From the IMG/VR virus record IMGVR_UViG_3300035698_001735, positions 32,001 through 96,000 of that record: a stretch of DNA of 64,000 bases; one strand, written 5' to 3'. How positions within the stretch are numbered: position 1 is the first letter of the stretch; each line of letters begins with the position of its first letter. This stretch comes from a virus. This document shows positions 43,696 to 59,956 of this stretch, one piece after another. The position numbers were made by a program, and so were the translations under genes. Under the pieces are notes generated by a model. The model saw only the letters and a program-made list of their open reading frames with translations. It was not told the DNA's origin and made no database searches.

Positions 43696-45811
43696 ATGAC
43701 TTTAGATATATTTGGTGAAGACTCTTCACGAGTTTGTAAATACTTGCATGATCCGTTAGCAATAATACTAGCCGGACATAAAACAGATGATGATATGTAC
43801 TGCGGCGAGACAACACAATCGCTGTTGATTACTCAACAGGTCAGTACAAGTAACTACAAACATACCCAAGTTCAGGTGCTCGATGAGCATCTTATGTTAG
43901 CGAAGAAAATTAGACTCTACTACCAAAATAAGCTTACCTTGCAATTTCTTAATGGCAACGCTCCTAGCTTGACTCCGTTTCGGCAAGATTTATTAACTCT
44001 GTTATCAGGAGATGCGCTTTCTTTAAGAGAAGATCACAAGCCTATGCTAGCTGTGTTGCCGAGGTTTTATAAAGAGGATATCTATCAAGATCGGTTGCAA
44101 AAGAACTTTACTATGATAAACTCGGACGTATTTGAAACTCCGGAACGCATGCACAATCATACAGAAGAATGGAAGCTTGTTACGGCCGACGAACCTTATC
44201 AAATACGAATGACTAAGAAGGAAAGAGTTCGAGTATACTGGTACTACAATGCCAAGAACGAATTACTTAAGATTCCTATTTCGTTAAAGAATCCTCTAGC
44301 GCCGTTATTTGAAAAATGCACAAACACTCCGACTGTTACGTTTACTGGTGATTACTATGCGGACTGTATGATGGGTCGTAACTTAACATATTGGTCAATG
44401 GATAACTGGAATATAGAATTATGAAGATAGGACTTTCGTTAAGCAAATGTTTGCCTGACATCATATACGGTACCGTAGATTACAACGACGTAATGTTAAT
44501 TATAACCGGCACCTGTGTTGAGGAATGGGATGACAAAAATTGTGATCTTATGTGGGGCGAATATCGGTATATCAGATCGGTGTGGCGGCAGTATCCTGAA
44601 AAAGATAAGCTGATGTTTGTAGCAATGATAAAGCGTCTTGCTAACGATGGCAAGTTGCATCAGCCCCGTTTGTTCGACGCACGCCCGCCGCAGATGCACT
44701 ACTGTTGGCTCGATACTATGATTACTTCTGCTGACATGCAGCACAATCCAACAGCAGAGAAGCTATGGAATCAGTATAAATTAATACAACAGTTAGGCGG
44801 TAAAAGTACACCTAGTGTATAAATACGTAAAGGAGTATAAATCTTTATGGATCATTGCCGCGTAACAACACACTTATCTACCCTGTTTTTAGTACTTTGT
44901 ATTATTTTATCAACCCTGTTAATTAGTATGGTAATATATGATTATCATCACAGAACTCCTTTAATTAACGTTTCCGCCCGCGCACTAGGACCTGCATACC
45001 CCGGCGGGGTAGCAAAGATTGAATTTAGATATACTCGACATTTTATAATGCCGGCTCGAGTATTAGATAGATGGATAGTATGCGACGACGGCGCACTTAC
45101 ATCTCCTACTTCTCTTTTCAGCCTAGCTGACAAGCCGGCTTGGCCGGCCGGAACTAACATGAAACACATTCTGCGTATCGTTATTCCGTCTGATATTAAA
45201 CCAGGGCAGTTTTGTCATTACGGAACATCTATAAAATTTAAACGTATGATTCTTCCGGACGTAATTATTAATAATCCGCCTACAAGTACCCCAATAAAAA
45301 TTATTCCTAACAGCTAACACAAATATTGTATTTTAATACACATATTATGTAGATATCTCATGACATAAATACGTGCTGTAACAGCGTTTAACACGTCTAC
45401 AGCAAGCGTTATGTAAGCAGACGCATGCATGTACAAGCGCTAATAAGCAAGCACACAGCGTAATTTATACAGGAGATAACAATGGAATACGTAGAAATAA
45501 TTTTATCAATATTAGGAGGCGGCTGGAACTATGCAGGCATGGCAGTGTCGTTCTTAGGAGACGGAATAACTAATACTATTATATCATGGATAGGCGGAGT
45601 ATTAATCTTTTGGGGAATAGCCGACCTATACATGTTTTACCGTTTTAGACGAGGATCAAAGGTTGATAAGACCGCAGCACTTTGGCATTGGATTAGTGTA
45701 AAGTGGTGCCTCGCATCGCAGACTGAATTAATGGCAGAGAAGCTACCTTTTATATCAAAGGACCTATCAGAAGTAGTTGGTGTTAAAGACGACGACGACA
45801 AAATAACTTAA
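43696..45811 (+). CDS. Four hypothetical proteins (43696-44424, 44421-44822, 44847-45317 and 45482-45811, the last two membrane-anchored and late-promoter driven)
   Basis: SD motifs; TATAAATA ~44818 and CATAAATA ~45364. Confidence 0.65.
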
Positions 45812-45916
45812 CCTAATCTAAAAAGTAAAGTGACATAGCAACAGAATAAAACACTTTACTTCCTTCACTATGTATGCTATAATAGTCATATACAAACTGA
45901 CTCATAGGATACTATC

Positions 45917-46312
45917 ATGAACGACCAAGTAGCAGAAATGCGCGGAATACCAACTCGCCAGAAACTAGAAGAAATCTTAGCAACCGGCGGAGTACTTGTT
46001 GTATTCAATAAAAAAGACGGCGACGAGCGAAGAATGCGATGCACAACTGATCGAATGTTAATTCCTGCAGATAAACGCCCGGACCTCAAAGTCGAAGTTT
46101 TAAAAGAAATCAAAGATGCTGCTGAACAAAAAGAAGACAAGCCGAATGTTACCGTTTGGGACCTAGATGCAAACGCATGGCGTTCATTTATATACACTCG
46201 CGTTACCCATGCAGCAATAGACTTTGAATCAAAAGAAGTAACAAACGTAGAATACAACGAAACACTAACCATCAACGGCGAAGCAGTAATTCAAACTGAA
46301 GACACTGAATAG
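45917..46312 (+). CDS. SH3/WYL-like fold protein
   Basis: VVFNKKDGDERRMRCT..VTVWDLDANAWRSF. Confidence 0.7.
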   Translation: MNDQVAEMRGIPTRQKLEEILATGGVLVVFNKKDGDERRMRCTTDRMLIPADKRPDLKVEVLKEIKDAAEQKEDKPNVTVWDLDANAWRSFIYTRVTHAAIDFESKEVTNVEYNETLTINGEAVIQTEDTE

Positions 46313-46361
46313 CTATTACTGAAAGCCAAGTACTGAACACTATAACTACAGGATACACACA

Positions 46362-46778
46362 ATGGAAATCGGATTCACTGGAACTCGTAATGAACTAACG
46401 CCCAAGGCGCTTAATGAGTTAACACTAGCACTAATTGACCTAAAAGACAATAACGAAATTACTATGTGCCATCATGGCGATTGCACTGGAGCAGACTTAG
46501 CATTTCACAATATATGTATGCAGATAGGTCTGCCTGTTATGGTACATCCGCCTATAAGAGATGACTTGCGTGCGTACTGTAAAGGCACTCACATCAGATC
46601 GCCACTTGGATACTTTGAACGCAACCGTGTTATTGTAACCCTAAGTGATATCCTTTTTGGATGTCCTTGGACTATGGAAGAAACTCAAGGCGGAACTTGG
46701 TATACAATTAATTATGCTAAGGAGAAAGGCGTTCCTGTACAGATGGTGTGGCCAGAAGAGTTAGCAGAAACTTTGTAA
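46362..46778 (+). CDS. SLOG-superfamily (DprA/YspA-like) protein
   Basis: IGFTGTR, HHGDCTGAD, RN..IV, GGTWYTINYA. Confidence 0.7.
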   Translation: MEIGFTGTRNELTPKALNELTLALIDLKDNNEITMCHHGDCTGADLAFHNICMQIGLPVMVHPPIRDDLRAYCKGTHIRSPLGYFERNRVIVTLSDILFGCPWTMEETQGGTWYTINYAKEKGVPVQMVWPEELAETL

Positions 46779-46829
46779 CAGAAATCCTAGACCAGCGCAG
46801 CGGGGTCTTCTAATAAACTGGAATATTAC

Positions 46830-47138
46830 ATGAATATATTATTTGTTTGTACTATGGCTAGATTAAGAAGTAAAACTGCTGCCCATTGCTTGCAAAGCAT
46901 TACTAATCCTTGTGATTACGGAGGTCTTGACTCCAAAGCAGACAAGCCTATTACTAAAGATATGGTTGAACGGGCTGATGTTATTGTTTGTATGGAAATA
47001 GGCCACAGGACTAAGCTAAGACGAAGATTCAAAGGCATAAGTCATAAGATGCAAGTTTGGGCCATACCAGACGATTACGAATATATGGACAACACGTTGG
47101 TTACTATATTAAACGGTAAAGCGGAGGAGTTACTATGA
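46830..47138 (+). CDS. Low-molecular-weight protein tyrosine phosphatase-like protein
   Basis: NILFVCTMARLRSKTA (CX5R), ADVIVCME, IPDDYEYM. Confidence 0.8.
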   Translation: MNILFVCTMARLRSKTAAHCLQSITNPCDYGGLDSKADKPITKDMVERADVIVCMEIGHRTKLRRRFKGISHKMQVWAIPDDYEYMDNTLVTILNGKAEELL

Positions 47139-48170
47139 GCAACAGGACTATGTTAGAAATCAATCATGATTTTATATATACCACTGACCAAGAAAAACTT
47201 GAATGGGCTAACAAGATGCTCGGATACTTATCATCAGGTGATCCAAAGCATTTGCCAGACGGCGTGACTTGGTTCGGCATGCGACACCATTCTACAGATT
47301 GTCCACTAGGCGAGCCTCCAAGAGGGTGGCATAACATTAGATAGAGAGATTAATATGAATATAACTTCAAGCGGTGCTAAAGTAGTAATTGGCGGGAAGG
47401 AATTCTCTGGCAAGAACATCAGTATTGCCGATGGCAAAGTAATTGTTGACGGTGTTGTACAAGACGGGTCGTTATCGGGTAATATAAATGTAGAAGTACA
47501 CGGTGATATCAATAGTCTTACTAACACAGCAGGCTCAATTAAATGCCGCGATGTCGGAGCAATAAAAACTACGTCAGGTGATGTAGATTGTTATACAGTC
47601 GGCGGTTCAATTAATACAATCAGCGGCGATGTAATATGCGGTAATGTCGGCGGCAATATTAAGACAGTTAGCGGCGACGTTAGCAGCGACACCTACAGAC
47701 GGAAACCTTAACTATGATAGATTTTAACATTAACAACTACGTATATGTGCAACTAACAGACCAAGGTATTAACGAATTGGAAAGACAGCATATTGAGTTG
47801 CAAGCACAGGCGCCAAGCATTGGGGATTTTAAGTTACCGCCGACGGACAGCGAAGGCTGGAGTAAATGGCAGTTACATTCATTAATGTATAGGCTCGGGC
47901 ATTGTTGCACTTTAACAGGTAAACCGCCGTTTGAGATAGAAATAAGAATTCCGACAAAAGAGGCATAAGGCCGTGATATACGTAATTGATGATACATCGG
48001 ACCTTAAGGACGTTTACCTCGAAGATATCGATGGCTTTGTTGGGTCTACACCAGAATGTTATTTAGTACAAGCTTGGTACTTTTATTATTTCTCGACGCT
48101 TAATGCAGCTAAAACAAAAGCTCGCAGTTTGGGTGTATCTGATGAAGTAAGAACAGAAAATAATCATTGA
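47135..48170 (+). CDS. Small hypothetical proteins (47135-47344, 47355-47711 beta-helix SGDV repeats, 47714-47968, 47973-48170)
   Basis: Co-oriented ORFs; T.SGDV repeats in 47355-47711. Confidence 0.6.
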
Positions 48171-48218
48171 CAATTCATAAATAGCACGCTATACTGTGCG
48201 TAAGATAAATAGAAGTAA

Positions 48219-48309
48219 GGAAGATTGGCGCGAGCGGTTGAAGGCAGCAGGTTGCTAACTTGTAAGGTTCGAAAGAGCTTCAAGGGTTCGAATCCCTTAT
48301 CTTCCTCCA
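48219..48309 (+). tRNA. tRNA-Ser(GCT)
   Basis: Cloverleaf, long variable arm, TTGCTAA loop, CCA. Confidence 0.88.
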
Positions 48310-48376
48310 AATTAATAAGTCAAAATAAGCACTTGACAGAATACACTTAGCACGCTATACTGTGCGTAAGTTAAAA

Positions 48377-48477
48377 AGTAAATAGTTGGCAGAGCATGGC
48401 TTAACGCATTGTGTTTGTATAACAGACATGAGTTCCTGTAAGAAGGAACCACAGGTTCGAATCCTGTACTAATTACT
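48377..48477 (+). ncRNA. Degenerate tRNA-like element
   Basis: D-arm-like TGGCAGAGCATGGCTTAACGCA, perfect T arm ACAGG-TTCGAAT-CCTGT, no CCA, poor anticodon stem; own duplicated promoter. Confidence 0.45.
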
Positions 48478-48508
48478 TTAATTTTTTAGTCTTTTTTAAA
48501 TAAAACAC

Positions 48509-48537
48509 TTGACAACTATGCTAAATAAGTGTATAGT
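48509..48537 (+). promoter_or_regulatory. Sigma70 promoter of tRNA-array leader
   Basis: TTGACA-17-TATAGT. Confidence 0.7.
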
Positions 48538-48550
48538 TAAACACGTTGCA

Positions 48551-48748
48551 ATGAAGCAACAAACAATTTTTATACCCAGGAAAGTATCGCACATGAAACA
48601 AGTTATGTTTATAGCCAGACAGAAGCATCAAGACGCAGAGCGTTTCGATGGCGGGATGCCTGAGCGCGGTCGTTGGGTGGATATTATTAATTATAATAAT
48701 ACGCTGCCGCAACAAAAAGGGGTTGGATCGGAGGGACTTAGACTATAA
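48551..48748 (+). CDS. Putative attenuator leader peptide (65 aa; alternative start 48593)
   Basis: ORF between promoter and terminator whose 3' end carries the antiterminator strand. Confidence 0.55.
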   Translation: MKQQTIFIPRKVSHMKQVMFIARQKHQDAERFDGGMPERGRWVDIINYNNTLPQQKGVGSEGLRL

Positions 48749-48775
48749 TAGTTTAGTTCACAACAAGATTTATAC

Positions 48776-48811
48776 AACCCCTTAAGCTAACACAGTTTAA
48801 GGGGTTTTTTT
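48776..48811 (+). terminator. Intrinsic terminator/attenuator upstream of tRNA array
   Basis: AACCCCTTAAG-loop-TTTAAGGGGTT followed by T run. Confidence 0.85.
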
Positions 48812-49007
48812 ATGAAGTGCTAATACGGAACGCGACTGTTACCGGCACTCTAAACAAAGGTTAATGGGCGGGTTGGGGATGAATTTCTACTTGTAGAATG
48901 ATAAAAGCAACAGTGTAAGGCATAGTGACCTTACGTAGTGGTCACGCCAAAATAAACGGGGCAACATAGACCACTGATAAAGAACCGTTAACTAATTTTT
49001 AAATTAT

Positions 49008-49092
49008 GCATTGTCCCCGGAGTTGGAGAGCCGGACCGCACTGTAAATGCGACGCGAGAGCTGAGTAGGTTCAAATCCTACACAATGCACCA
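49008..49092 (+). tRNA. tRNA-Tyr(GTA)
   Basis: GCATTGT/ACAATGC acceptor, CTGTAAA loop, CCA. Confidence 0.85.
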
Positions 49093-49098
49093 ATTTTT

Positions 49099-49172
49099 AG
49101 TCCTATAATTCAATGGCAGAATGACGGTCCGATAAACCGTATACGGAGGTTCGATTCCTCTTAGGACTACCA
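49099..49172 (+). tRNA. tRNA-Ile(GAT)
   Basis: ACGGT-CCGATAA-ACCGT, CCA. Confidence 0.85.
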
Positions 49173-49173
49173 C

Positions 49174-49248
49174 ACTCCTTTAACTCAACGGTAGAGTGCT
49201 TCTTTTACACGGAAGATGTTGCAAGTTCGAATCTTGCAGGGAGTACCA
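49174..49248 (+). tRNA. tRNA-Val(TAC)
   Basis: CTTCT-TTTACAC-GGAAG, CCA. Confidence 0.85.
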
Positions 49249-49249
49249 T

Positions 49250-49325
49250 CCGGCTATGATGTAACTGAATAGCATAGGAGTCTTCTAAACTCTTCGACCA
49301 GGTTTGAATCCTGGTAGCCGGACCA
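49250..49325 (+). tRNA. tRNA-Arg(TCT)
   Basis: GGAGT-CTTCTAA-ACTCT, CCA. Confidence 0.88.
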
Positions 49326-49330
49326 ATTAC

Positions 49331-49405
49331 GTCCCCTTCGTCTAGCGGTTAGGACGCTAGGTTTTCATCCTAGTAACAGGAGTTCGATTCTCCTAGGGGA
49401 CACCA
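49331..49405 (+). tRNA. tRNA-Glu(TTC)
   Basis: CTAGG-TTTTCAT-CCTAG, CCA. Confidence 0.9.
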
Positions 49406-49411
49406 AACAAT

Positions 49412-49486
49412 GGCGTATGTAGCTCAGTTGGTAGAGCCCCGGATTGTGAAGCCGGTATGCGCGGGTTCGAGTCCCGTCATTCGCCA
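49412..49486 (+). tRNA. tRNA-His(GTG), 3' end abuts HEG insertion
   Basis: CCGGA-TTGTGAA-GCCGG; G-1; full C-CCA end is found only in the downstream copy at 50218-50230. Confidence 0.85.
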
Positions 49487-49525
49487 ATGTGTATAAATAT
49501 ATTGTATACATTGGCGAGTGAACAA

Positions 49526-50211
49526 ATGAAACATTTTATTATATACAAAACTACAAATATAATTAATAACAAAGTATATATCGGCATGCACGAAACGTAT
49601 AATGTAAACGACGGATACCTAGGGTCTGGCAAAATACTAAAACGAGCTATTAACCGATACGGAATTGAAAACTTTAAGAAACAGGTTCTATACGATTTTA
49701 AGACTCGCGACGAAATGATTAACAAAGAAGAAGCGATTGTTACGGCTAGTTTTGTAGCTAGCACTACTAATTATAACTTATGCGAGGGCGGCAAAGGAGG
49801 ATTCTCGTATATAAATTCAAATGGGTTAAATGGCTCAAAAAAAGGAAGGATCGGTTATGATAGCAAATCGCAAACGACTCGAGACGAGTGGATAAAAAAA
49901 GCAAGACTTGTTTGAAAGAGTGGCGAGAGAGTCATAAGTCAAAGGCAGCTTACGTTCAACGAGTTATCACTATACGAGAAAGATACGGCGATGATGGATT
50001 TAAGACTTTTTTAGGGAAAAAACACACCGAACTATCTAAACAATTAATAAGCGCAAGTGCTAAAGTTACTAGCAAAGGTGCGAAAAATTCTCAATATGGT
50101 ACTAGGTGGATACATTCGTTAACTGAAAGAAAGAGTGTAAAAATTAGAAAAGAAGAGCTCTTGCCTATAGGGTGGATCGAAGGTCGTAAGATGAAGTTTA
50201 GTGACGGCTAG
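49526..50211 (+). mobile_element. GIY-YIG (Seg-like) homing endonuclease, frameshifted at A7 run ~49894-49900
   Basis: IIYKTTN..NKVYIGMH..DGYLGSG..YNL.EGG.GG; -1 frame continues to FLGKKHT..KNSQYGTRWI..GWIEGRK. Confidence 0.85.
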
Positions 50212-50237
50212 CTAACTGTCATTCGCCCCAAATTAAT

Positions 50238-50320
50238 GCGGAACTGGTTAATACAAATTGGCACAGTTACTACTCTTAGAAAGTAGACCCTTCCGGGTTC
50301 GAGTCCCGGGTTCCGTACCA
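50238..50320 (+). tRNA. tRNA-Leu(TAG)
   Basis: CTACT-CTTAGAA-AGTAG, atypical D arm, CCA. Confidence 0.75.
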
Positions 50321-50333
50321 AACAAATAACCAC

Positions 50334-50419
50334 GGGCTTGTGGTGGAATGGGATACACACTGGTTTCAAGTACCAGCGCCGAGCGAGGTATGAGAGTTCG
50401 AATCTCTCCAGGCCCACCA
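50334..50419 (+). tRNA. tRNA-Leu(CAA)
   Basis: CTGGT-TTCAAGT-ACCAG, variable arm, CCA. Confidence 0.85.
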
Positions 50420-50426
50420 AATTAAT

Positions 50427-50500
50427 GCGCTGCTAACTCAATGGCAGAGTATCGGGCTTTTAACCCGACTATCAGGGTTCGATTCCCTGGCGGCGTACCA
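50427..50500 (+). tRNA. tRNA-Lys(TTT)
   Basis: TCGGG-CTTTTAA-CCCGA, CCA. Confidence 0.88.
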
Positions 50501-50519
50501 CATTAGTGATAAATAAAGA

Positions 50520-50762
50520 ATGCGCTTAAGAGAATTCACAGAACCTGCTGTACAGGAATCACCAATAGCTAGTAGTTGGCAAGTTGATCTAACATACGAT
50601 CGTGCTAACAGTGCCATAACAATGGTGACTAACAAGAACTTTCGTTACAGAATAAGTAACATACCTTGGGAGTTGTACAGAGGCTGGAGACGTTCGCGCA
50701 GTAAAGGAAAGTACTGGCATAAGTACATTAAAAATCAATATCAAATTGATCGCATCCTTTAA
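50520..50762 (+). CDS. KTSC-domain protein
   Basis: SS....YD.......Y.I.NIP.ELY..W..S.SKGKYWHKYIKNQY; GATAAATA upstream. Confidence 0.75.
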   Translation: MRLREFTEPAVQESPIASSWQVDLTYDRANSAITMVTNKNFRYRISNIPWELYRGWRRSRSKGKYWHKYIKNQYQIDRIL

Positions 50763-50826
50763 CCTTTCTTTATAGTTGACTAGTAGTAACATACGTGTTA
50801 CACTTAGTACAACAAAACAATTTAAT

Positions 50827-50898
50827 TCCAGTGTAGCTCAGGTCATAGAGCGCCGAGTCACTCGGGTGTCGCAGCTTTGAACCCTGTCACTGGATCCA
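50827..50898 (+). ncRNA. Aberrant tRNA-like RNA with 3-nt anticodon loop
   Basis: TCCAGTG/CACTGGA acceptor, GCTC/GAGC D stem, CCGAG-TCA-CTCGG, CCA. Confidence 0.55.
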
Positions 50899-50906
50899 AG
50901 TTTTAT

Positions 50907-50982
50907 TCCGGAGTAGCTCAGTTGGTAGAGCGTCGGGCTGTTAACTCGAATGTCGCGGGATCGTAACCTGCCTCTGGAGCCA
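50907..50982 (+). tRNA. tRNA-Asn(GTT)
   Basis: TCGGG-CTGTTAA-CTCGA, CCA. Confidence 0.88.
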
Positions 50983-50990
50983 ATTTTAAA

Positions 50991-51066
50991 TGGTATGTAG
51001 CTCAGTTGGTAGAGCGCCTGACTGTTAATCAGGATGTCGCGGGATCGTAACCTGCCATACCAGCCA
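50991..51066 (+). tRNA. tRNA-Asn(GTT), second copy
   Basis: CCTGA-CTGTTAA-TCAGG, CCA. Confidence 0.88.
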
Positions 51067-51082
51067 ATTTAAGGAGATTGAT

Positions 51083-51292
51083 ATGACTAAGTTAATTTGT
51101 AGTCGTGAATTTTTAGAAGATGCACTTCAACTTAATTGTCATGATATCAAAATCGAATCAGTCGAAATGATACAGCATAACGAGCTTGATGCAGTACAGC
51201 TTAATTTATCTGGATCAACCGAAGACAGAATCGCATTAAATTATACAAAGAATAAAGATGGTGTTATGACATCTAAAGTAGTAAAAGTATAA
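51083..51292 (+). CDS. Hypothetical protein within tRNA array
   Basis: AAGGAG SD. Confidence 0.6.
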   Translation: MTKLICSREFLEDALQLNCHDIKIESVEMIQHNELDAVQLNLSGSTEDRIALNYTKNKDGVMTSKVVKV

Positions 51293-51302
51293 CAAAGAAT
51301 AT

Positions 51303-51379
51303 CGGAAATTAGCTCAGTTTGGTAGAGTACACCGTTTGGGACGGTGGGGTCGTCAGTTCGAACCTGACATTTCCGACCA
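51303..51379 (+). tRNA. tRNA-Pro(TGG)
   Basis: CACCG-TTTGGGA-CGGTG, CCA. Confidence 0.9.
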
Positions 51380-51403
51380 ATTTAAGAAGTAGTAAAGTAT
51401 TAT

Positions 51404-51479
51404 CTCTCTGTAGTGTAGTCTGGTAACATGGTCCGTTTGGGGCGGAGCGTCCGAGGTTCAAATCCTCGCAGAGAGACCA
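51404..51479 (+). tRNA. tRNA-Pro(TGG), second type
   Basis: TCCG-TTTGGGG-CGGA, CCA. Confidence 0.85.
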
Positions 51480-51540
51480 ATTTAATAGTTGACATACAGT
51501 AATAGCAATGCTATACTTACTGTAGAAATTAACTAACAGA

Positions 51541-51615
51541 CGCAGGTCGGAGAAATGGTAACTCGCTAGGCTCATAACCTTGAGAACGTAGGTTCGATTC
51601 CTACACCTGCAACCA
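51541..51615 (+). tRNA. tRNA-Met(CAT), initiator-like
   Basis: C1:A72 mismatch, CTCATAA loop, CCA. Confidence 0.8.
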
Positions 51616-51623
51616 CTTTAAAC

Positions 51624-51699
51624 GCGGGTATAGCTCAGTTGGTAGAGCAGAAGGTTTCCAACCTTCATGTCAGGAGTTCGAGTCTCCTTACCCGCTCCA
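51624..51699 (+). tRNA. tRNA-Gly(TCC)
   Basis: GAAGG-TTTCCAA-CCTTC, T discriminator, CCA. Confidence 0.9.
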
Positions 51700-51707
51700 A
51701 GTTTTAA

Positions 51708-51783
51708 GGGCCGGTAGCTCAACTGGTTAGAGCACTCGACTCATAATCGAGAGGATAAGGTTCAAGTCCTTGGCGGCCTACCA
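51708..51783 (+). tRNA. tRNA(CAT), probably Ile2 (lysidine type)
   Basis: CTCGA-CTCATAA-TCGAG; GGGCC acceptor typical of Ile2; identity is inference. Confidence 0.8.
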
Positions 51784-51818
51784 CTATTTAAGAAGTATAA
51801 ATGTTAGAAAAGAGAAAA

Positions 51819-51893
51819 GGAGATGTAGCTCAATCGGGAGAGCGTTGCACTGTCACTGCAAAGGTAGCGAGATCAAAACTCGTCATTTCCGCC
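51819..51893 (+). tRNA. tRNA-Asp(GTC), no encoded CCA, followed by HEG
   Basis: TTGCA-CTGTCAC-TGCAA; ends GCCC. Confidence 0.8.
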
Positions 51894-51953
51894 CTTGGGG
51901 TATAAGAGTTTCGGTCTTATACCCGTTACTTGACACTGCGTATAAATACCTAC

Positions 51954-52829
51954 ATGTATTATACAATTTACCAAGTAACAAATAAAATCAACGGCAAGTG
52001 CTACATAGGAGCACATAGGACCAATGATTTAGATGACAATTATATGGGATCAGGTAAGATCTTAAATTATGCTATTTCAAAATATGGATTAGATAATTTC
52101 AAAAAAGAATACCTGCATATATTTGAAAATTCAGATGCTATGTTTAACATGGAGACAATGCTAGTTGATTGCGAATTTGTAAAAAGACAAGATACGTATA
52201 ATCTCAAGCTAGGAGGATTCGGCGGCTGGGATTACGTTAACAAGGCAGGGCTTAACAATTTCGGAAAAAACAAACTAGAAATTGCAAAGCTACTAAGCAG
52301 CAAGTCTAAAGGACGAAAGCCTAGTAGTAAAACACTAGCGGCTGCACGCAAAAGACATAGCGAAGGTGCGTATCGCCATACGTACTTCGGAAATAGAAAA
52401 AAAGACTACGACTATCGGTGCAAAGCGCAAACACCTGAAGCAAAGGCAAAGCGCTTAGCCTCGCAAGCTAAAATAGGCCATCAGCAAGGAAAAAGCAACT
52501 CGCAATACAACACTTGCTGGGTATACTGCAATGACACAGATAGCAAAAAAAAGATAAACAAAAAGATGTTGCCCGAATACATAGCTAACGGATGGGTTAG
52601 GGGGCAATACAATAAAGAGCAGAAACAGGAAGAAAAACGTAATCTAGCAAGCGCTAAGAAAAAAGAACTTATCGACATCCGCACTAAGCTAGCTAAAGAT
52701 TCACGAGATTTGTATATACACCTAGCTTATAGCTCGGTTAGAAAGTTTGTAAGAGATGGACATTACCCTTATTCCGTACAATGTTTACTGAATTTATGGA
52801 GAAGGTATATTCCTAATTTTGCTTTATGA
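51954..52829 (+). mobile_element. GIY-YIG (Seg-like) homing endonuclease
   Basis: TIYQVTNKINGKCYIGAH..DNYMGSG..TYNLKLGGFGGW; TATAAATA at 51941. Confidence 0.88.
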
Positions 52830-52834
52830 ATAAT

Positions 52835-52949
52835 ACACTTGAAGCTCACGGCGAGCACCTGACCTGCCCATTTAACGAAGCATGGTAATTATGCTTAGTT
52901 TGTGGGAGCCATTGGGAGGTAGGAAGTTCAAGTCTTCCCAAGTGTACCA
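52835..52949 (+). ncRNA. tRNA-like RNA with ~40-nt extra hairpin in the anticodon arm
   Basis: ACACTTG/CAAGTGT acceptor, GCTC/GAGC D stem, GGAAG-TTCAAGT-CTTCC T arm, ACCA. Confidence 0.65.
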
Positions 52950-52954
52950 TTTTC

Positions 52955-53080
52955 ATAGTTAGTTTAAGTACGCTCTTAACACGTGAGTTGTAGTCAAAAC
53001 TAATAGCGAAAGCACAGTAGAGGCCCGTCGACAGTTGAAGTCGTTAACAATCTGGATGATAGTGTGAGTAGCGGTACTAT
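52955..53080 (+). ncRNA. Candidate ncRNA, copy 1 of CGAAAGCA..TAGAGGCCC family
   Basis: Colinear motif blocks shared with 63208-63365. Confidence 0.45.
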
Positions 53081-53086
53081 ATTAAT

Positions 53087-53162
53087 GCACTTGTAGCTTA
53101 ATTGGAAAAGCGCCGGTCTTCGAAACCGGAAGTTGGAAGTTCGAATCTTTCCAGGTGTACCA
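53087..53162 (+). tRNA. tRNA-Arg(TCG)
   Basis: CCGGT-CTTCGAA-ACCGG, CCA. Confidence 0.88.
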
Positions 53163-53168
53163 TTTTAA

Positions 53169-53244
53169 GGCGTCCAAGCTAACCAGGTGGAAGCGCATGT
53201 TTGAAGAACATGAGGGCTCGGATCGATACCGAGGGACGCTACCA
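53169..53244 (+). tRNA. tRNA-Phe(GAA)
   Basis: CATGT-TTGAAGA-ACATG, CCA. Confidence 0.8.
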
Positions 53245-53367
53245 AGTTTTACTGTCTTAGATAGTAACAGAAAGAATGCTTAATCGGGGCTACGAACTTT
53301 TACTCTGCCCGAGGAGCGTTGCTGACATAGTTGGCACGCCTTTGTATTGTGATAGTAGTTTTAATAT

Positions 53368-53442
53368 GCGGGCGTAGCTCAGTGGTAGAGCGCAACTTTG
53401 CCGAAGTTGAAGTCGCGAGTTCGAATCTCGTCGCCCGCTCCA
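53368..53442 (+). tRNA. tRNA-Gly(GCC)
   Basis: CAACT-TTGCCGA-AGTTG, CCA. Confidence 0.9.
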
Positions 53443-53590
53443 AGTTTGCGGTAGTTTAATATAAGGTTCCTAAGTACACGGATACTAGAGAATACCTGCT
53501 TATTGAGGCAGGAGATGGTAGCAACGTTTAAGGTGGCCACCGGTTAACCTTGCGTGACTTAAATGCTCGCCCCACAAAGCCAAATTCAAC

Positions 53591-53666
53591 AGCAGTGTAG
53601 CTCAGTTGGCAGAGCAATTCCTTCATACGGATTAGGTCGGAGGTTCAAATCCTCTCACTGCTACCA
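53591..53666 (+). tRNA. tRNA-Met(CAT), elongator-like
   Basis: TCC-TTCATAC-GGA, CCA. Confidence 0.85.
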
Positions 53667-53673
53667 AGTTTAT

Positions 53674-53745
53674 AGGTCGGCCTCTGGTGTGGGGTTGAAA
53701 CTCCAAATCTCGACTTCCTCGGTTCGATTCCGAGCCGGCCTGCCA
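53674..53745 (+). tRNA. tRNA-Trp(CCA)
   Basis: AGGTCGG/CCGGCCT acceptor, CTCCAAA loop, short D arm, GCCA. Confidence 0.7.
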
Positions 53746-53767
53746 CTTACTCAGGATAAGTACTATT

Positions 53768-54160
53768 ATGAATGCAGAAAGTACATATTGTATAGAGCAC
53801 AACATTGACTACGACAGAAAGTGTCATCAGTGCGAACTAGCAAAAATTATAGACGGCACGATTATAAAATACTCATCTCGCTCACGTTTACCGCAGTACG
53901 CTATTGAAGGTAGCGACGGTTATTTGTACGGTTGGTTTGATATAGAAACAGCTGAACAAATATTAGCTGAGCTTGCGGTGATACGACTAAACAAAAATAA
54001 TATATTACCTTGTCCGTTTTGCGGAGCAGAGGTTGAAATGTGTCCTAACAACAGTTATGGTGATTGCATTATAGGATGTAATTGCGATCACGAACCAGCT
54101 GTCATCGAACAAATTGGTAAAGAGGATTCCTTGATTAGTAAATGGAATAGAAGAGCATGA
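53768..54160 (+). CDS. Hypothetical protein with C-terminal Lar-like zinc finger
   Basis: LPCPFCG....C.C....WNRRA. Confidence 0.65.
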   Translation: MNAESTYCIEHNIDYDRKCHQCELAKIIDGTIIKYSSRSRLPQYAIEGSDGYLYGWFDIETAEQILAELAVIRLNKNNILPCPFCGAEVEMCPNNSYGDCIIGCNCDHEPAVIEQIGKEDSLISKWNRRA

Positions 54161-54521
54161 AAAAATACTGCTAATGTTAACATTGTTACTGCCGTGCTTT
54201 GCATTTGCAGAAACCGACATGGATAAACTTGATTTTAGTCCAACTCGCGGAGAGAAGTTCATTGACTTTACTGCTACTAACAGTAAAACCTTTATTGAAG
54301 TAGGCATAGGAACAAACAACAGTTTGATTAATCCTGGGCAAGACTGGAATGACGGAGGCGGCACTGGTGCTTACATAGGCATTAGGCGAGAATGGAGTAA
54401 CGGGTGGGTTATACAACTGTCGCACTATAGTCAGTGGGAAATAGGTCCTCCGTTTAACAATAAAGAAGAGTCTTCGCTTGATCATATCGGGCTTGGATAC
54501 AGATTTCAAATTTTTAAATAA
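54157..54521 (+). CDS. Signal-peptide protein with outer-membrane beta-strand-like C-terminus
   Basis: MKKILLMLTLLLPCFAFA; ends IGLGYRFQIFK. Confidence 0.55.
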
Positions 54522-55137
54522 GGTACACATGTTAATGCAAGTTAAGAAGACAGTAGATCTACGTGATTCTAGTGGTGATATCAGAGGTATGTACGAACGA
54601 GAACTTGTAGAAAACTGCTCAACAACCAGTAGTAAGTATACTAATAATCTAAGAGCATTTGACGAGATGCTGCAAGAGATTGCAGACACTGCATTTAAAA
54701 TGGGCCAAGAGGAAGGCATGTAATCGATACAAAACTAGTGCCATCACTGAGTAAACTTATTATTAAAGTACTTGACAACGAAGCTAACTTTATGTTATAC
54801 TGTAGTAAGACTGCTAACTACCACAACGGCTTAGTTGGCTTTTATATGAAAAAGAAAAGATGCTTACTTACACTTATCTCGGCTAATGGAAAAATGTTGA
54901 CCGAGGAAGTAAAAACAAAAGACGTATTAGACTGGTACAATAACATATGATTGATGTAAAATTAGAAGCAGCCGAAGTCAACCTTATTATGAATCTCATG
55001 GAGGAAATGCGGAAGCCGGTGCCAAAAAACTTATGCGCCACGTTTTATAGAACTCTTAAGTACAATGGCGATGTAAAACTAAAAGAAATTGCAGATCGGT
55101 TAGCAAATAAGATTACTGCTAACTAAGAAAAGAATAT

Positions 55138-55217
55138 GGGGAATGGGACTGCTTGGGGTGGTCGCTGCACTTGCAATGCAGATATTCAGATCGGTTCGAA
55201 TCCGATATTCTCCACCA
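55138..55217 (+). tRNA. tRNA-Ala(TGC)
   Basis: G3:U70, CTGCA-CTTGCAA-TGCAG, CCA. Confidence 0.82.
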
Positions 55218-55222
55218 ATTAC

Positions 55223-55301
55223 GGTGTTGTAGCATACCGAAGAATGTGCTCGGTCTTAAAGGCCAAGAGAGTGGTAGGTTCAATTCCCCGTTTCTTCACC
55301 A
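55223..55301 (+). ncRNA. Degenerate tRNA-like sequence (TAA loop)
   Basis: D-arm-like TAGCATA..TGTGC, CTTAAAG loop, GGTTCAATTCC, ends CCA; poor acceptor stem. Confidence 0.35.
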
Positions 55302-55320
55302 AACAAGAGAGGGTACATTT

Positions 55321-55641
55321 ATGATAACCAGTGAATTTAGACAAAAGTTTTTTCAAGACACAGATCACACCGGGCGTCATATAGTAGTATCGTTTCGAAC
55401 CGGACGACAGTATTTTGTTGAATGTATTGAAGGACTTACACGCCGCAAGTGGGGAGACCTGAATCCAGCTACTGGCAAAGTAGAAGGACAGTACGGACAA
55501 AAGTATCGAGGGTGCATTGACGCAGCCGACAGCATGATCTCAGAAGAAAATGGATTTAAAAACGTACAGACGTTTGGTCCCGGAGAGAGTCCATATGCTG
55601 CGATCGACAAGCGCGATGCTACATATCCAGACAAAGTTTAA
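55321..55641 (+). CDS. Conserved phage hypothetical protein
   Basis: TD.TGR.IV.S.RTGRQYFVECI..WGDLNPATGK..YGQKYRGCI. Confidence 0.7.
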   Translation: MITSEFRQKFFQDTDHTGRHIVVSFRTGRQYFVECIEGLTRRKWGDLNPATGKVEGQYGQKYRGCIDAADSMISEENGFKNVQTFGPGESPYAAIDKRDATYPDKV

Positions 55642-55661
55642 GAAAGAAGCATAAGTATTAC

Positions 55662-55736
55662 GCTCTTATAGTTTAACTGGAAAAACAGGAGATTTGTAAC
55701 CTTCAGTTCTCGGGTCAGTTCCGAGTGAGAGCTCCA
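55662..55736 (+). tRNA. tRNA-Thr(TGT)
   Basis: TTTGTAA loop, GCTCTTA/TGAGAGC acceptor, CCA. Confidence 0.75.
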
Positions 55737-55741
55737 ATAAT

Positions 55742-55816
55742 TGGGGATTAGCTTAATTGGTAAAGCACCGGACTTTGAATCCGGTTTTACGAGTTCGAAT
55801 CTTGTATCCCCAGCCA
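55742..55816 (+). tRNA. tRNA-Gln(TTG)
   Basis: CCGGA-CTTTGAA-TCCGG, CCA. Confidence 0.9.
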
Positions 55817-55821
55817 CATAT

Positions 55822-55898
55822 GTCCCTATCGTCTAGTCGGCCTAGGACGCTGCTTTCTCAGAGTGGAAACGTTGGTTCAAACCCAGCTAGGGACGCCA
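55822..55898 (+). tRNA. tRNA-Glu(CTC)
   Basis: CTGCT-TTCTCAG-AGTGG, CCA. Confidence 0.82.
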
Positions 55899-55977
55899 TT
55901 TTTAGTAACAAACTTCTTGACATTTAACATTGCTAAGCGTATAGTACATGCTTAACAATTAATACACAGGGTAAGTT

Positions 55978-57021
55978 ATGTTTGATCACAGTGTGCAACG
56001 TATAGGCTTTGCCTGTAAATACAGATTCGAAGACTACACGCAGCCTAAAAAAGTTCGCGTAGCCGCCGAGGCGGTATTCAACGGTCGCTCTACAACCGCA
56101 GCATGGCTTGGACGACAAACTAAAGACGAAGCATACACACGCTTATATGAAATTGTAGTAGACAACGTACAGTGCTATTATAAGCTTGTAGAATATGCAA
56201 GCACGTTAGCGCCGCACTTACGCTTACTAAGGCTTGGTTCAGATGTGTTTCCTATGTTTACGCACAATGCGTGGAAATCGTTTTACACAGACACTGATAT
56301 ACTTAAAGTTGCAGAACGCGAACTTGCTAAAGTAGGTGCATTAGCTAAGAAGCACGATGTGCGCCTTTCTATGCATCCCGGGCAGTTTACAGTACTTGCT
56401 TCTGAAACAGAAAGTATTGTTATTAAATCTATTGAAGAAATGGAGTATCATGCTACAGTTGCACAGATGATGGGCTACGGTGATGTATGGCACGACTTTA
56501 AAATTAATGTACATATTTCAGGACGTAAAGGTCCGCAGGGTATATTAGATGCGTTACCGCGTTTAAGTACGCCAGCACGTAATATGCTTACTATCGAAAA
56601 CGAAGAAGTATCATGGGGCTTAGAGCAAACGCTCGAGCTTGCAGACAAAGTAGCACTAGTGCTTGATATACACCATCACTGGGTTCGCGAAGGTGAATAC
56701 ATTCAACCAACTGATGATAAATGGAAGCGCGTAATTGATAGCTGGCGCGGGGTTCGACCTACTATACACTATTCGTTATCGCGATTAGATGTACTACACA
56801 GTCACAACCCAGACATACTGCCTAATATGGAAGAACTGTTAGAACAAGGTTACAAGAAGTCTAAGTTACGAGCACACAGTGACACTATGTGGAACAATGT
56901 TGCTAATGACTGGGCTGTTACATTTTTACCCGACGCTGATATTATGGTAGAAGCTAAGCATAAAAATCGCGCATCTATTAAACTATACGAGGATCATGTT
57001 CATGTCACTAATGGGAAATAA
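55978..57021 (+). CDS. uvsE: UV damage endonuclease
   Basis: RIGFACK, LRLGSD, RLSMHPGQFTVLAS, TIENEE, LVLDIHHHW, RAHSD, IMVEAKHK. Confidence 0.92.
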   Translation: MFDHSVQRIGFACKYRFEDYTQPKKVRVAAEAVFNGRSTTAAWLGRQTKDEAYTRLYEIVVDNVQCYYKLVEYASTLAPHLRLLRLGSDVFPMFTHNAWKSFYTDTDILKVAERELAKVGALAKKHDVRLSMHPGQFTVLASETESIVIKSIEEMEYHATVAQMMGYGDVWHDFKINVHISGRKGPQGILDALPRLSTPARNMLTIENEEVSWGLEQTLELADKVALVLDIHHHWVREGEYIQPTDDKWKRVIDSWRGVRPTIHYSLSRLDVLHSHNPDILPNMEELLEQGYKKSKLRAHSDTMWNNVANDWAVTFLPDADIMVEAKHKNRASIKLYEDHVHVTNGK

Positions 57022-57319
57022 CGAACTAGAGATGTTTCAAGCTGCTATGGTAGAAGCAAGGCGCATGTCTGAAAATGGCGAAGAAGTTGACGAGAAGCAC
57101 ATTTTAAGAATGTCCTTAGAGTTTGCTTTCCAAAAAGGCGTTGAGGCCGGAACGCAGGTAAGCTGCGTTGCTCTTTTTAAGAAGCTAGTATCACACTACG
57201 GCAATGAACTAGGCACAGACATTGCAAAGCTAATTGACATTGGCAGCCCCGAAGATTTAGAAAAACACACAGCAGAAATACGTAAAAAAGTTCAAGACAT
57301 TAAAAAAACGGATCCTTAG
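57011..57319 (+). CDS. Hypothetical protein, 3' end overlaps tRNA-Val
   Basis: ORF; stop lies inside tRNA 5' end. Confidence 0.55.
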   Translation: MGNNELEMFQAAMVEARRMSENGEEVDEKHILRMSLEFAFQKGVEAGTQVSCVALFKKLVSHYGNELGTDIAKLIDIGSPEDLEKHTAEIRKKVQDIKKTDP

Positions 57320-57385
57320 CTTAGCGGCAAAAGCTTCTGGTTTACACCCAGAGAATCGCAGGTTCGAGTCCTGCAGGATCCACCA
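57310..57385 (+). tRNA. tRNA-Val(TAC), second copy
   Basis: TCTGG-TTTACAC-CCAGA, CCA. Confidence 0.85.
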
Positions 57386-57404
57386 TTTTAAGAGGCGCGT
57401 AATT

Positions 57405-57947
57405 ATGAAAGTTACTACGTTACACCAGCTTGAAAAATTTGCTATAGCAAACGCTACTTACATATTAGTAGCCGGCGGAATAGGAATTGGTAAAAGTCAC
57501 ATTATTTCTAGCGCTATGCCGTTCGTACCAATTATGGATATTGATCACGAAATGGACAAGTATGGCCTTACTAAATATAATGAAAAGAACATGTTACAAT
57601 GCAGGAAATCACTAAGCACTAAAATTAAGTCTATGATTGCGAACGGCGCTAGTTTAGTTGCTATGGGAACAGCGGCTGATACAGTGTTTACAATTGATCG
57701 CTTATACGGTGCAAAGCAAGCAGGCATGAAAACTGCACTAGTACACATTACCGCCCCGCACTATCAAGCGCGATTACAAAACGAAGCGCGACGCGAGCAA
57801 GGACGAAGAGCAGTGCCAGTAGAAGATGAATATCTTCTACGTCGTACTATTACCGAGTCAGCTATGACAGTTAGCACAGTTGGCCCATCCACTCTAGTAG
57901 ATATCTTTATTCACATTGACAACACAAGAAAGACAGTATTACTATGA
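57405..57947 (+). CDS. P-loop kinase-like protein
   Basis: LVAGGIGIGKS Walker A, DID, R..QG.RAVP lid-like segment. Confidence 0.65.
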   Translation: MKVTTLHQLEKFAIANATYILVAGGIGIGKSHIISSAMPFVPIMDIDHEMDKYGLTKYNEKNMLQCRKSLSTKIKSMIANGASLVAMGTAADTVFTIDRLYGAKQAGMKTALVHITAPHYQARLQNEARREQGRRAVPVEDEYLLRRTITESAMTVSTVGPSTLVDIFIHIDNTRKTVLL

Positions 57948-59134
57948 GAGCTAAAGATTTTGTAGCAGAAGCTACTAGAAAGTTAGAACCTGCGCAATTC
58001 CAGCAGCTCATTACTCCTGAAGTACAGCGTTTGGACAAAGCAATGTCACAAGCTGGATTTGAGGTACGCATCGTAGGCGGTGCTGTACGAGATCTCGTAC
58101 AGAGTAAAAATCCTAAAGATATTGATATGGCAACTAATGCTACTCCTGATGAAATGATGCAAGTCTTTGACGAAGCAGGTATACGCTACGAGCCAACTGG
58201 ATTACAACACGGCACGCTAACAGTTATCATTGACGGCGAGCCAATTGAAATTACTACACTGCGCATTGACACTGACCAAGACGGCAGGCATGCAAATGTT
58301 GAGTTTACTAAAGATTGGGAACTTGATGCACAGCGTCGTGACTTAACTTACAATGCAATGAGCATGGAGTTAGACGGGACACTGCACGATTACTTTGGCG
58401 GCGAAGAAGACCTTAAACAAGGTGTTTCTAAGTTTGTCGGAGATGCTGGATCTAGAATGGAAGAAGACTTCCTTCGTATTTTAAGATACTTTAGATTCCA
58501 GAGTCGACTAGGTTCTCCGCAATGGGACGAGCAAACGCTTGCTACTGTTAAAGAGAAGGCACAAGGACTTACAAAGATTTCCGGTGAGCGAATTTGGGCA
58601 GAGTTAGGCAAAATCCTATCCAGCGCAAACGCTGCTGACATTCTGTCAAAGATGGACGAGACAGGTGTTAGCAAACATATCGGCTTACGTGATTGGAGAC
58701 GAGGCAACTTAACTAACGTTAAGAAGTTTAGCAACGATCCGTTAATTGCCTTAGCAGCACTAACTAACACGATATTTGATCTGGAAGAATTAAAGGCGAT
58801 GTGGAAGTTTAGTAATGCCGAGTTTCAAGCAATGGCGTACATCATTGAGCACAGAGACGATCCTTTCGACGAAACTGTTGCCAAGAAGATGATGACGCAG
58901 CCTAAAGCAAATCCAGAGCACATTAAAATGCTCGCCTTGTCATTAGGCAAACAGGATATTGCAGGTATGTTGAAGACTTGGAAGAAACCTACATTCCCTA
59001 TCACAGGAAAAGATCTCCAAGCCGCCGGCATTAAACCAGGTCCTGACATGGGACGTATCCTAAACGTGTTAAGAAAAGAATGGGAAGAATCAGGATTTTC
59101 GCTTGACAAAGCTGCATTATTGCGTATAATGTAA
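57944..59134 (+). CDS. cca: tRNA nucleotidyltransferase (CCA-adding enzyme, class II)
   Basis: VGGAVRD, DIDMAT, EITTLR, DAQRRDLTYNAM, EDFLRILRYFRF, ISGERIW. Confidence 0.93.
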   Translation: MRAKDFVAEATRKLEPAQFQQLITPEVQRLDKAMSQAGFEVRIVGGAVRDLVQSKNPKDIDMATNATPDEMMQVFDEAGIRYEPTGLQHGTLTVIIDGEPIEITTLRIDTDQDGRHANVEFTKDWELDAQRRDLTYNAMSMELDGTLHDYFGGEEDLKQGVSKFVGDAGSRMEEDFLRILRYFRFQSRLGSPQWDEQTLATVKEKAQGLTKISGERIWAELGKILSSANAADILSKMDETGVSKHIGLRDWRRGNLTNVKKFSNDPLIALAALTNTIFDLEELKAMWKFSNAEFQAMAYIIEHRDDPFDETVAKKMMTQPKANPEHIKMLALSLGKQDIAGMLKTWKKPTFPITGKDLQAAGIKPGPDMGRILNVLRKEWEESGFSLDKAALLRIM

Positions 59135-59167
59135 TAATACAAAACACAAACTAACACAAGGAATACA

Positions 59168-59770
59168 ATGATACATAATAACTTGGTACCAATGGTTGTC
59201 GAAGAATCACCGCGCGGAGAACGTTCGTTTGATATCTTTAGTCGATTGTTACGTGAGCGAATTATATTTCTAAATGGCCCAGTTGATGATCATTCTGCAA
59301 ACATTATTTGCGCACAGATGCTATTCTTGGAGGCTGAAGATCCTAAGGCAGACATTGGCTTTTATATTAATTCCCCAGGCGGCGTTGTTACTGCTGGCAT
59401 GGCAATATTTGACACCATGAACTTTATTAAGCCCGACGTTAGTACATTAGTAATGGGGCAAGCATGTTCTATGGGATCGTTCTTATCAGCAGCAGGCACT
59501 ATCGGTAAGCGTATGTGTCTACCTACTGCGCGTATTATGATGCATCAGCCAAGCGGCGGCTCACATGGTCAAGCTACTGACATTGAAATACAAGCAACTG
59601 AAATACTACGCATTAAACGCGAGCTTACTGAATTCTATGCCAAGCATAGTACTACAGGCAAAACGTTTGAAGAATTTAGCGCAGCTATGGAACGTGATAA
59701 TTTTATGTCAGGCGACGAAGCAATGAACACCTGGGGTATTATAGATCAAGTAGTTACGCATCGCCCTTAA
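59168..59770 (+). CDS. clpP: ATP-dependent Clp protease proteolytic subunit
   Basis: [37 protein letters not shown]. Confidence 0.95.
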
Positions 59771-59823
59771 AATATGTTAAAATAAGTGTTGACAACAACA
59801 CTTTATTAATGTATACTAATTAT

Positions 59824-59892
59824 GTCGCAGTAGCTTAATTGCAAAGCATTCCGTAAGGAAGGAAGCACAATCGAATCGTGCCTGTGACCCCA
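59824..59892 (+). ncRNA. tRNA-like RNA lacking an anticodon (GTAA tetraloop), with own sigma70 promoter (59789-59817)
   Basis: GTCGCAG/CTGTGAC acceptor, GCTT/AAGC D stem, TTCC-GTAA-GGAA, T-like arm, C-CCA. Confidence 0.6.
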
Positions 59893-59916
59893 TTTTAAAA
59901 TATGTTAAAATAATCG

Positions 59917-59945
59917 TTGACAACTGCGTTATTTTAGTGTATAAT
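59917..59945 (+). promoter_or_regulatory. Sigma70 consensus promoter of the repeat array/694-aa gene
   Basis: TTGACA-17-TATAAT with extended -10 TG. Confidence 0.8.
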
Positions 59946-59956
59946 GTATACATGAC

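Follow-up and report, generated by a model that had tools for sequence, protein, structure and literature searches.

Attenuators in which a translated leader decides the fate of the transcript are familiar from the enterobacterial amino-acid operons, where the trpL, hisL, pheL, leuL, thrL and ilv leaders carry ORFs of about 14-32 codons, and in the known attenuators the terminator conformer is more stable than the antiterminator conformer. The pyrBI leader is longer (about 44 codons), and there a closely following ribosome prevents formation of the terminator, so that translation gives read-through. In mycobacteria, whiB7 has a uORF attenuator. Stable small RNAs other than tRNAs, 'species 1 and 2', are encoded in the tRNA region of phage T4.

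The locus described here is a short unit with its own promoter, ORF and terminator, located immediately before the main tRNA cluster of an uncultured giant phage. With the trp/his-type attenuators it shares a promoter-proximal ORF, mutually exclusive antiterminator and terminator structures, and a terminator placed before promoter-less genes that would be regulated; as in those systems a ribosome at the end of the ORF is predicted, here from geometry, to favour termination. However, its ORF is 65 (or 51) codons long and shows neither a run nor an enrichment of regulatory codons, its translation start signals are weak, and it has no strong 1:2 pairing, the predicted default of the untranslated RNA being read-through and not super-attenuation. 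Different too are the genes downstream, which are tRNAs and not biosynthetic enzymes, and the carrier, which is a phage. Closer in some respects are pyrBI and whiB7, which likewise have a longer leader ORF and in which the overall progress of translation, not one amino acid, sets termination, but the geometry here predicts a polarity opposite to that of pyrBI.

Two further classes of RNA have to be considered. The three-helix logic of P1, antiterminator and terminator with overlapping strands is shared with the expression platforms of riboswitches and T-boxes, conditional terminators for which PASIFIC-type predictions are described in the available part of one report (PMC5314783); no known aptamer or T-box features were detected in the phage unit, however, and its P1 is weak. 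GOLLD and ROOL RNAs are located close to phage tRNA islands, according to the part of a second report that deals with them (PMC12286853). Like these and the T4 stable RNAs, the unit would give a non-tRNA RNA encoded among phage tRNA genes, and it is represented in an RNA library. It differs in that it matches no Rfam family, GOLLD and ROOL included, measures only about 265 nt, contains an open frame of 65 codons, and combines a promoter of its own with a terminator for which an alternative pairing exists.

The phage and its tRNA region

The window analysed here, a stretch of 64,000 nucleotides, corresponds to bases 32001-96000 of a 116,740-bp IMG/VR record of an uncultured giant phage. The completeness of the record is estimated at about 32% (CheckV), which implies a genome of roughly 350 kb. 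Encoded within the window are NadV, a NatV-like enzyme, an RNA ligase, a ribonucleotide reductase, a CCA-adding enzyme and homing endonucleases. Sequencing runs with near-identical DNA come from salt-lake metagenomes and a single marine metatranscriptome. No close relative is present among 50,697 GenBank phage records, in which the CCA enzyme reaches at most 39% protein identity and NadV 58%. Nor did IMG/VR yield a close phage relative when searched with neighbouring proteins, namely the CCA enzyme and one of 118 aa.

The window holds 30 tRNAs, 28 of which lie downstream of the terminator at 48776-48813. Interspersed among the tRNA clusters are GIY-YIG and other homing-endonuclease-like ORFs (49457-50211, 51930-52829 and 55978-57021). 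Three further sequences, at about 50238-50320, 50827-50898 and 62480-62567, are tRNA-like in that they have acceptor stems, T arms and encoded CCA ends; they are called by neither ARAGORN nor Rfam and may be unusual or decayed tRNAs, the one at about 50827 seeming to have a very short anticodon loop.

The features of the unit and of its immediate surroundings are as follows.

48167-48476, + strand: two upstream tandem promoter units, P48167 leading to tRNA-Ser and P48333 to an odd tRNA-like RNA of 97 nt
48509-48537, + strand: consensus sigma-70-type early promoter TTGACA-N17-TATAGT, a motif match, with the start predicted at about 48543-48545
48545-48560, + strand: 5'-terminal hairpin of 5 bp (GUUGC/GCAAC) in the MFE folds, with AUG 48551 in its loop
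48551-48748, + strand: 65-codon ORF from the ORF listing (ATG 48551, TAA 48746-48748), which fills the transcript
48569-48577, + strand: 5' strand of a weak helix, 'P1', which pairs with 48719-48727 and closes a domain of about 140 nt
48717-48728, + strand: antiterminator 5' strand, codons 56-59 of the ORF
48734-48759, + strand: internal hairpin in the antiterminator loop (-6.2 kcal/mol), with UAA 48746-48748 as its 3-nt loop
48772-48783, + strand: antiterminator 3' strand, overlapping 8 nt of the terminator 5' arm
48776-48813, + strand: intrinsic terminator with a 13-bp stem (48776-48806), a 5-nt loop and a U7 tract; hairpin energy -17.5 kcal/mol
48812-49007, + strand: spacer of 196 nt with no + strand ORF of at least 25 aa, no Rfam match and a fold z-score of -1.37
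49008-49486, + strand: first tRNA cluster (Tyr, Ile, Val, Arg, Glu, His), in which tRNA-Tyr starts at 49008
50334-50500, + strand: tRNA-Leu and tRNA-Lys, which follow the first cluster

Early promoters and the tandem units

The original prediction had placed a promoter at 48509-48537, and a consensus sigma-70 site is indeed present there. It belongs to a family that is strongly over-represented: the window contains 19 TTGACA-N16-18-TATANT sites, all of them on the + strand, where 0.17 would be expected (100 shuffles). Over the whole record the + strand carries 26 such sites and the - strand 3. This phage clearly employs host-type early promoters.

Three such promoters, at 48167, 48333 and 48509, are stacked directly upstream of the terminator, the unit at 48509 being the third in tandem, and read-through from P48167 and P48333 would also reach the terminator at 48776-48813. 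The promoter together with the transcribed leader (TAGCACGCTATACT GTGCGTAAG...) is duplicated at 48160-48210 and 48326-48376, as tandem copies of one cassette, and these duplicated cassettes precede the tRNA-Ser and the odd tRNA-like gene. The latter, at 48380-48476, has its own consensus promoter at 48333-48361 and is called as a 97-nt 'tRNA-Thr(tgt)' by ARAGORN; its T arm is normal and its variable arm long. The Rfam tRNA model gives no hit to it at E<=1. When folded, its anticodon region forms a 10-bp hairpin that closes a loop of 3 nt.

A terminator with an alternative pairing partner

A strong intrinsic terminator had been claimed upstream of the main tRNA cluster. This is borne out, as the site at 48776-48813 is the top-ranked terminator-like site in 44001-64000 and hence the strongest of the tRNA region; comparable + strand terminators number only about five in the 116,740-bp record. 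Equally borne out is the complementarity between the last codons of the ORF and the 5' arm of the terminator: AAGGGGTTGGAT (48717-48728) and ATACAACCCCTT (48772-48783) are complementary at 11 of 12 positions and form nine contiguous Watson-Crick pairs. The resulting antiterminator hairpin (48717-48783, -21.9 kcal/mol) has a 9-bp stem, in which 48717-48725 pairs with 48775-48783.

This pairing is mutually exclusive with the terminator, as had been proposed, and is statistically unusual. When the upstream 219 nt were subjected to 1000 dinucleotide shuffles, the duplex energy was reached in 21 and nine contiguous pairs in 6 of them. The same shuffle test applied to nine terminators of the genome gave 3/300 and 2/300 for this one and 59-296/300 for the other eight.

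Folding of transcripts of increasing length gives a clear succession of structures. With the transcript ending at 48770, P1 has a pair probability of 0.5-0.77, which drops to 0 once the antiterminator can form. At ends between 48785 and 48800 the antiterminator has a pair probability of about 1.0, and at 48812 the terminator reaches 0.98 and the antiterminator falls to 0.02. Folded over 48700-48812, the two conformers have energies of -32.3 kcal/mol for the terminator and -22.6 kcal/mol for the antiterminator (about 10 apart), and the antiterminator dominates the predicted folding until the 3' arm of the terminator has been made. Because the pairing exceeds chance expectation, and because of the length-resolved succession of folds and the energies of the two conformers, the modelled RNA of the unit has the anatomy of a conditional terminator. 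P1 is a candidate anti-antiterminator in these models; it consists of 7 weak pairs, and no anti-antiterminator of convincing strength was found.

The antiterminator loop encloses the stop codon of the ORF (48746-48748), with 26 nt between this codon and the antiterminator 3' strand, and a ribosome covers about 28-30 nt. Since the antiterminator 5' strand falls within the last ten codons of the ORF, and the stop codon within the loop, a ribosome that finishes the ORF would block the antiterminator and free the terminator. The proposal that a ribosome at the leader end masks the antiterminator is thus self-consistent in its geometry, the translation of the ORF itself being putative.

Spacer and downstream tRNAs

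The original prediction left no room for a separate promoter between the terminator and tRNA-Tyr, and none of the sigma-70 early type was found in this spacer with a position weight matrix. The best score was 0.7, as compared to at least 14.8 for the 20 training sites, and is equalled by 21% of random windows. The next early-type promoter sites downstream are at 50776 (9/12) and 51489. Between the terminator and the next promoter lie the tRNAs for Tyr, Ile, Val, Arg, Glu, His, Leu and Lys and the GIY-YIG ORF, and the tRNA-Tyr-to-His cluster would depend on read-through of the terminator. This arrangement is not unique to the site, because the gene that follows the + strand terminator ending at 67161 likewise has no consensus promoter before 69558. 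Middle or late promoter types could also drive the tRNAs; a comparison of the spacer with other upstream regions yielded no shared motif for a phage-specific promoter, and TATAAATA is not enriched in the window (8 occurrences, 6.7 expected) and is absent from the spacer.

These data have a bearing on a reading in which the terminator is a fixed temporal boundary that divides immediate-early transcription from a tRNA block expressed later, overridden by a phage antitermination factor or bypassed by a promoter of a non-sigma-70 type, while the ORF and the pairing have no regulatory role. The early region is interrupted by further terminators, at 15052-15101 and 67111-67161, most tRNA clusters have no promoters of their own, and with about 32% of the genome in hand antitermination factors or phage sigma or RNA polymerase genes could lie elsewhere. 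Such a boundary would however leave both the ORF and the antiterminator pairing unexplained, and neither a repeated motif linking the spacer to other upstream regions nor an enrichment of TATAAATA speaks for it. We regard this explanation as very improbable.

The 65-codon ORF

The ORF that had been reported at 48551-48748 is present as described. When the transcript was shuffled 3000 times, ATG-initiated ORFs of at least 65 codons turned up in 0.8% of the shuffles and those of at least 51 codons, the length of a version that starts at the in-frame ATG 48593, in 3.3%. The start signals are weak. ATG 48551 lacks a Shine-Dalgarno sequence (+0.9 kcal/mol) and follows the -10 hexamer by 14 nt, which leaves an untranslated leader of about 7 nt. 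ATG 48593 is preceded by AGGAAAG at 48578-48584, in which the AGGA provides a modest Shine-Dalgarno sequence (-4.3 kcal/mol) 11 nt from the ATG; values of -4 kcal/mol or better are found for 69% of the 71 phage ORFs of at least 120 aa. Apparently leaderless early mRNAs are seen elsewhere in this phage at P4311 (4311-4348, 227-aa ORF) and P15103 (15103-15140, 102-aa ORF), the ATG following the -10 hexamer by about 6-7 nt in both.

With a codon score of 0.035/0.185 the ORF is borderline: real-gene windows have a 5th percentile of 0.074/0.157 (n=153), antisense ORFs a 95th percentile of 0.023/0.199 (n=18), and the ORF falls between the two. It scores below the neighbouring small gene at 47973-48167 (0.141/0.308). 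A single-sequence AlphaFold2 model of its product is unfolded (pLDDT 51.5, pTM 0.16), which is weak evidence. Two other coding assignments were rejected. An overlapping, transmembrane-like ORF of 45 aa in frame 2 (48648-48785) resembles non-coding sequence in its codon score (-0.034/-0.003), and a 76-aa gene call (P0001) has its start inside the promoter. The frame-2 product has a hydrophobic N-terminus (AGCLSAVVGWILLIIII) and then a basic cluster, and its reading frame closes within the terminator stem. Within the 65-codon ORF lies a perfect 8-bp all-A/T palindrome at 48682-48701 (TATTATTA ATTA TAATAATA).

The lack of a single-amino-acid run in the leader had been called consistent with a general translation sensor. 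There is indeed no such run, but the sensor claim gains no statistical backing from the codon content: 21 of the 65 codons are read by the gated tRNAs, as compared to 32.4% expected from long genes (P=0.55, no enrichment), and the use of 19 of the 20 amino acids is not unusual, since 35% of real-gene windows do as well (13.5% when the 51-codon version is compared).

Another reading is that the unit is an ordinary small early gene, which encodes a protein of 65 or 51 aa and has both a promoter of its own and a terminator that acts unconditionally. In that case the complementarity upstream of the terminator would be coincidental, and the downstream tRNAs would be made by leaky read-through or from a promoter type not recognised here. 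A frame that fills the transcript and is improbable by chance is what such a gene would show, the phage has many small ORFan genes as well as short-leader and leaderless genes, and an exact RNA contig covers the interior of this unit; the neighbour at 47973-48170 is also without a homologue. Yet strong terminators are rare (about five on the + strand in 116.7 kb) and an ordinary gene seldom has one, and the antiterminator pairing would have to be accepted as a 1-2% coincidence, seen at none of the eight other terminators. Moreover, the codon score falls below those of neighbouring small genes and, as a weak point, the modelled product is unfolded. An ordinary gene is in our estimation unlikely, if far from negligible.

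Relatives and expression

Searches for relatives of the element returned little. Megablast and blastn against 50,697 phage records found no nucleotide relatives, tblastn with the ORF found no homologue among phages, and exact-pattern scans of IMG/VR for the element gave no genuine relative, one pattern match (L003) being due to chance as it shares 22 nt only and has no tRNAs. A scan of IMG/VR with the back-translated ORF gave nothing, and a back-translated match in a metagenome (L002) is antisense to an acyltransferase gene on a high-GC bacterial contig and thus spurious. At the protein level the ORF matched only itself in 5.8 billion clusters and 1.84 billion representatives (full HMMER). The missing homologues are uninformative, because a control ORF of equal length, 47973-48170, likewise matches only itself among 5.8 billion proteins.

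One related DNA contig of 7.4 kb (X3) spans 47974-49249 at about 93% identity, with no indels between 48482 and 49005. In this relative 15 nt at 47958-47974 are replaced by 230 other letters, and the ORF at 47973-48170 is about 15% diverged, far more than the downstream tRNA region.

In a marine metatranscriptome (X7) a contig of 169 nt matches 48565-48733 without differences; 47900-48472 and 48754-49332 have no exact cover there, and this missing cover, like that of parts of the stretch in runs X1 and X2, is not informative. The evidence consists of contigs, which show neither ends nor strand, and not of reads; it gives a weak hint that the unit is expressed or that its RNA accumulates.

Fold strength and the possibility of a non-coding RNA

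The whole transcript folds with a z-score of -3.9, and none of 200 shuffles folds as well. Removal of the terminator brings the z-score to between -2.6 and -2.95, a level that 3 of 46 windows (227 nt each) in the coding early region of the phage also reach. The fold of the unit is not exceptional, because its z-score falls when the terminator is removed and because coding windows reach the same values. No match to Rfam 15 at the gathering score was obtained for the unit, the best E-values being 0.1-3, with sub-threshold scores of 25.0 bits for the trpB motif (59 needed), 21.5 for the L10 leader (44) and 19.7 for PyrR (54); T-box, riboswitch, GOLLD, ROOL, tmRNA and 6S identities are rejected for want of an Rfam match. 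The genome contains no paralogue of the element.

The unit might be a non-coding RNA in one of two forms, in both of which the ORF is incidental. It could be a stand-alone stable small RNA of about 265 nt, comparable to those from the tRNA regions of other phages. Alternatively, it could be an attenuator of riboswitch-like or factor-sensed type: binding of a ligand or protein would stabilise the 140-nt domain closed by P1 and thereby withhold 48719-48727 from the antiterminator, so that the terminator is on. The first two tandem units make small RNAs, and this third one also has its own promoter, followed by a strong terminator; P1 has part of its 3' strand in common with the 5' strand of the antiterminator, as in a classical expression platform; the fold of the whole transcript surpasses all shuffles; and the RNA contig lies inside the unit. 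Structured RNAs near phage tRNA islands are moreover a known pattern, as the relevant part of one report documents for GOLLD and ROOL (PMC12286853). On the other hand, the open frame of 65 codons would be left as a coincidence of the rarity given above, the body of the RNA is within the range of coding windows once the terminator is taken away, and the unit has neither an Rfam match above threshold nor a paralogue in the genome nor a homologue in the searches made. A non-coding RNA is therefore an explanation that we hold to be improbable, though worth keeping in mind.

A possible ribosome-sensed attenuator

We tentatively favour a ribosome-sensed attenuator as the best reading of the unit, a reading that rests on one sequence. 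It is favoured because a single hypothesis covers the ORF and the antiterminator pairing, each an event of about 1% and independent of the other, as well as the rare strong terminator. Further arguments in its favour are the over-represented promoter family, the strongest terminator in a 20-kb tRNA region and the promoter-less spacer, and also the clean succession of folds from P1 through antiterminator to terminator with the terminator conformer the more stable one. The use of leaderless mRNAs by the phage, a Shine-Dalgarno sequence at ATG 48593 that is within the range of the long ORFs and, weakly, the exact metatranscriptome contig inside the unit point in the same direction. Against it stand the position of ATG 48551 in a hairpin loop behind a leader of about 7 nt and without a Shine-Dalgarno sequence, the 11-nt spacing at ATG 48593, the borderline codon score, an ORF longer than the leader peptides of the classical systems, the lack of enrichment of gated-tRNA codons, the weakness of P1, and the promoter-less gene that is also found downstream of the terminator ending at 67161.

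In the mechanism that we propose, host RNA polymerase would start at about 48544 and transcribe the 65-codon ORF or the 51-codon version from ATG 48593. As judged from folding only, newly made 48775-48783 would then pair with 48717-48725 to give the antiterminator, which would occupy 8 nt of the terminator arm. The geometry suggests that a ribosome on the last 10 or so codons or on the stop codon would block this pairing, in which case the 13-bp/U7 terminator would form and a discrete RNA of about 265 nt would be released. Conversely, were ribosomes missing or delayed at an earlier point of the ORF, the antiterminator would be predicted to persist, and transcription from 48509 and from the two upstream promoters would enter the promoter-less tRNA-Tyr-to-His cluster and beyond. 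The net effect would be that poor translation yields more phage tRNA, with no sign in the ORF that particular amino acids would be sensed. A connection of the switch to anticodon nucleases, which the original prediction had drawn, is pure inference. That a long, codon-diverse test ORF gauges the overall translation capacity and opens the terminator before at least 8 tRNA genes is conceivable but doubtful.

Phage tRNA arrays have been proposed to serve codon supply or the replacement of tRNAs destroyed by host defences, as stated in the available parts of two reports (PMC10264068, PMC11555353), and why phages carry them and how they are timed or dosed is still debated. A full-text literature search, as far as the text open to it extends, turned up no description of attenuation or of a feedback loop ahead of phage tRNA genes. 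Should the unit instead be a small gene or a small RNA, it would be an ordinary feature of a poorly sampled lineage of giant phages. If however the attenuator reading is true, a terminator switch read by ribosomes and placed before a tRNA array would be a direct mechanism for tRNA production when translation falters, and the supply of phage tRNA would rise when ribosomes slow, for instance after cleavage of host tRNAs by defence nucleases.
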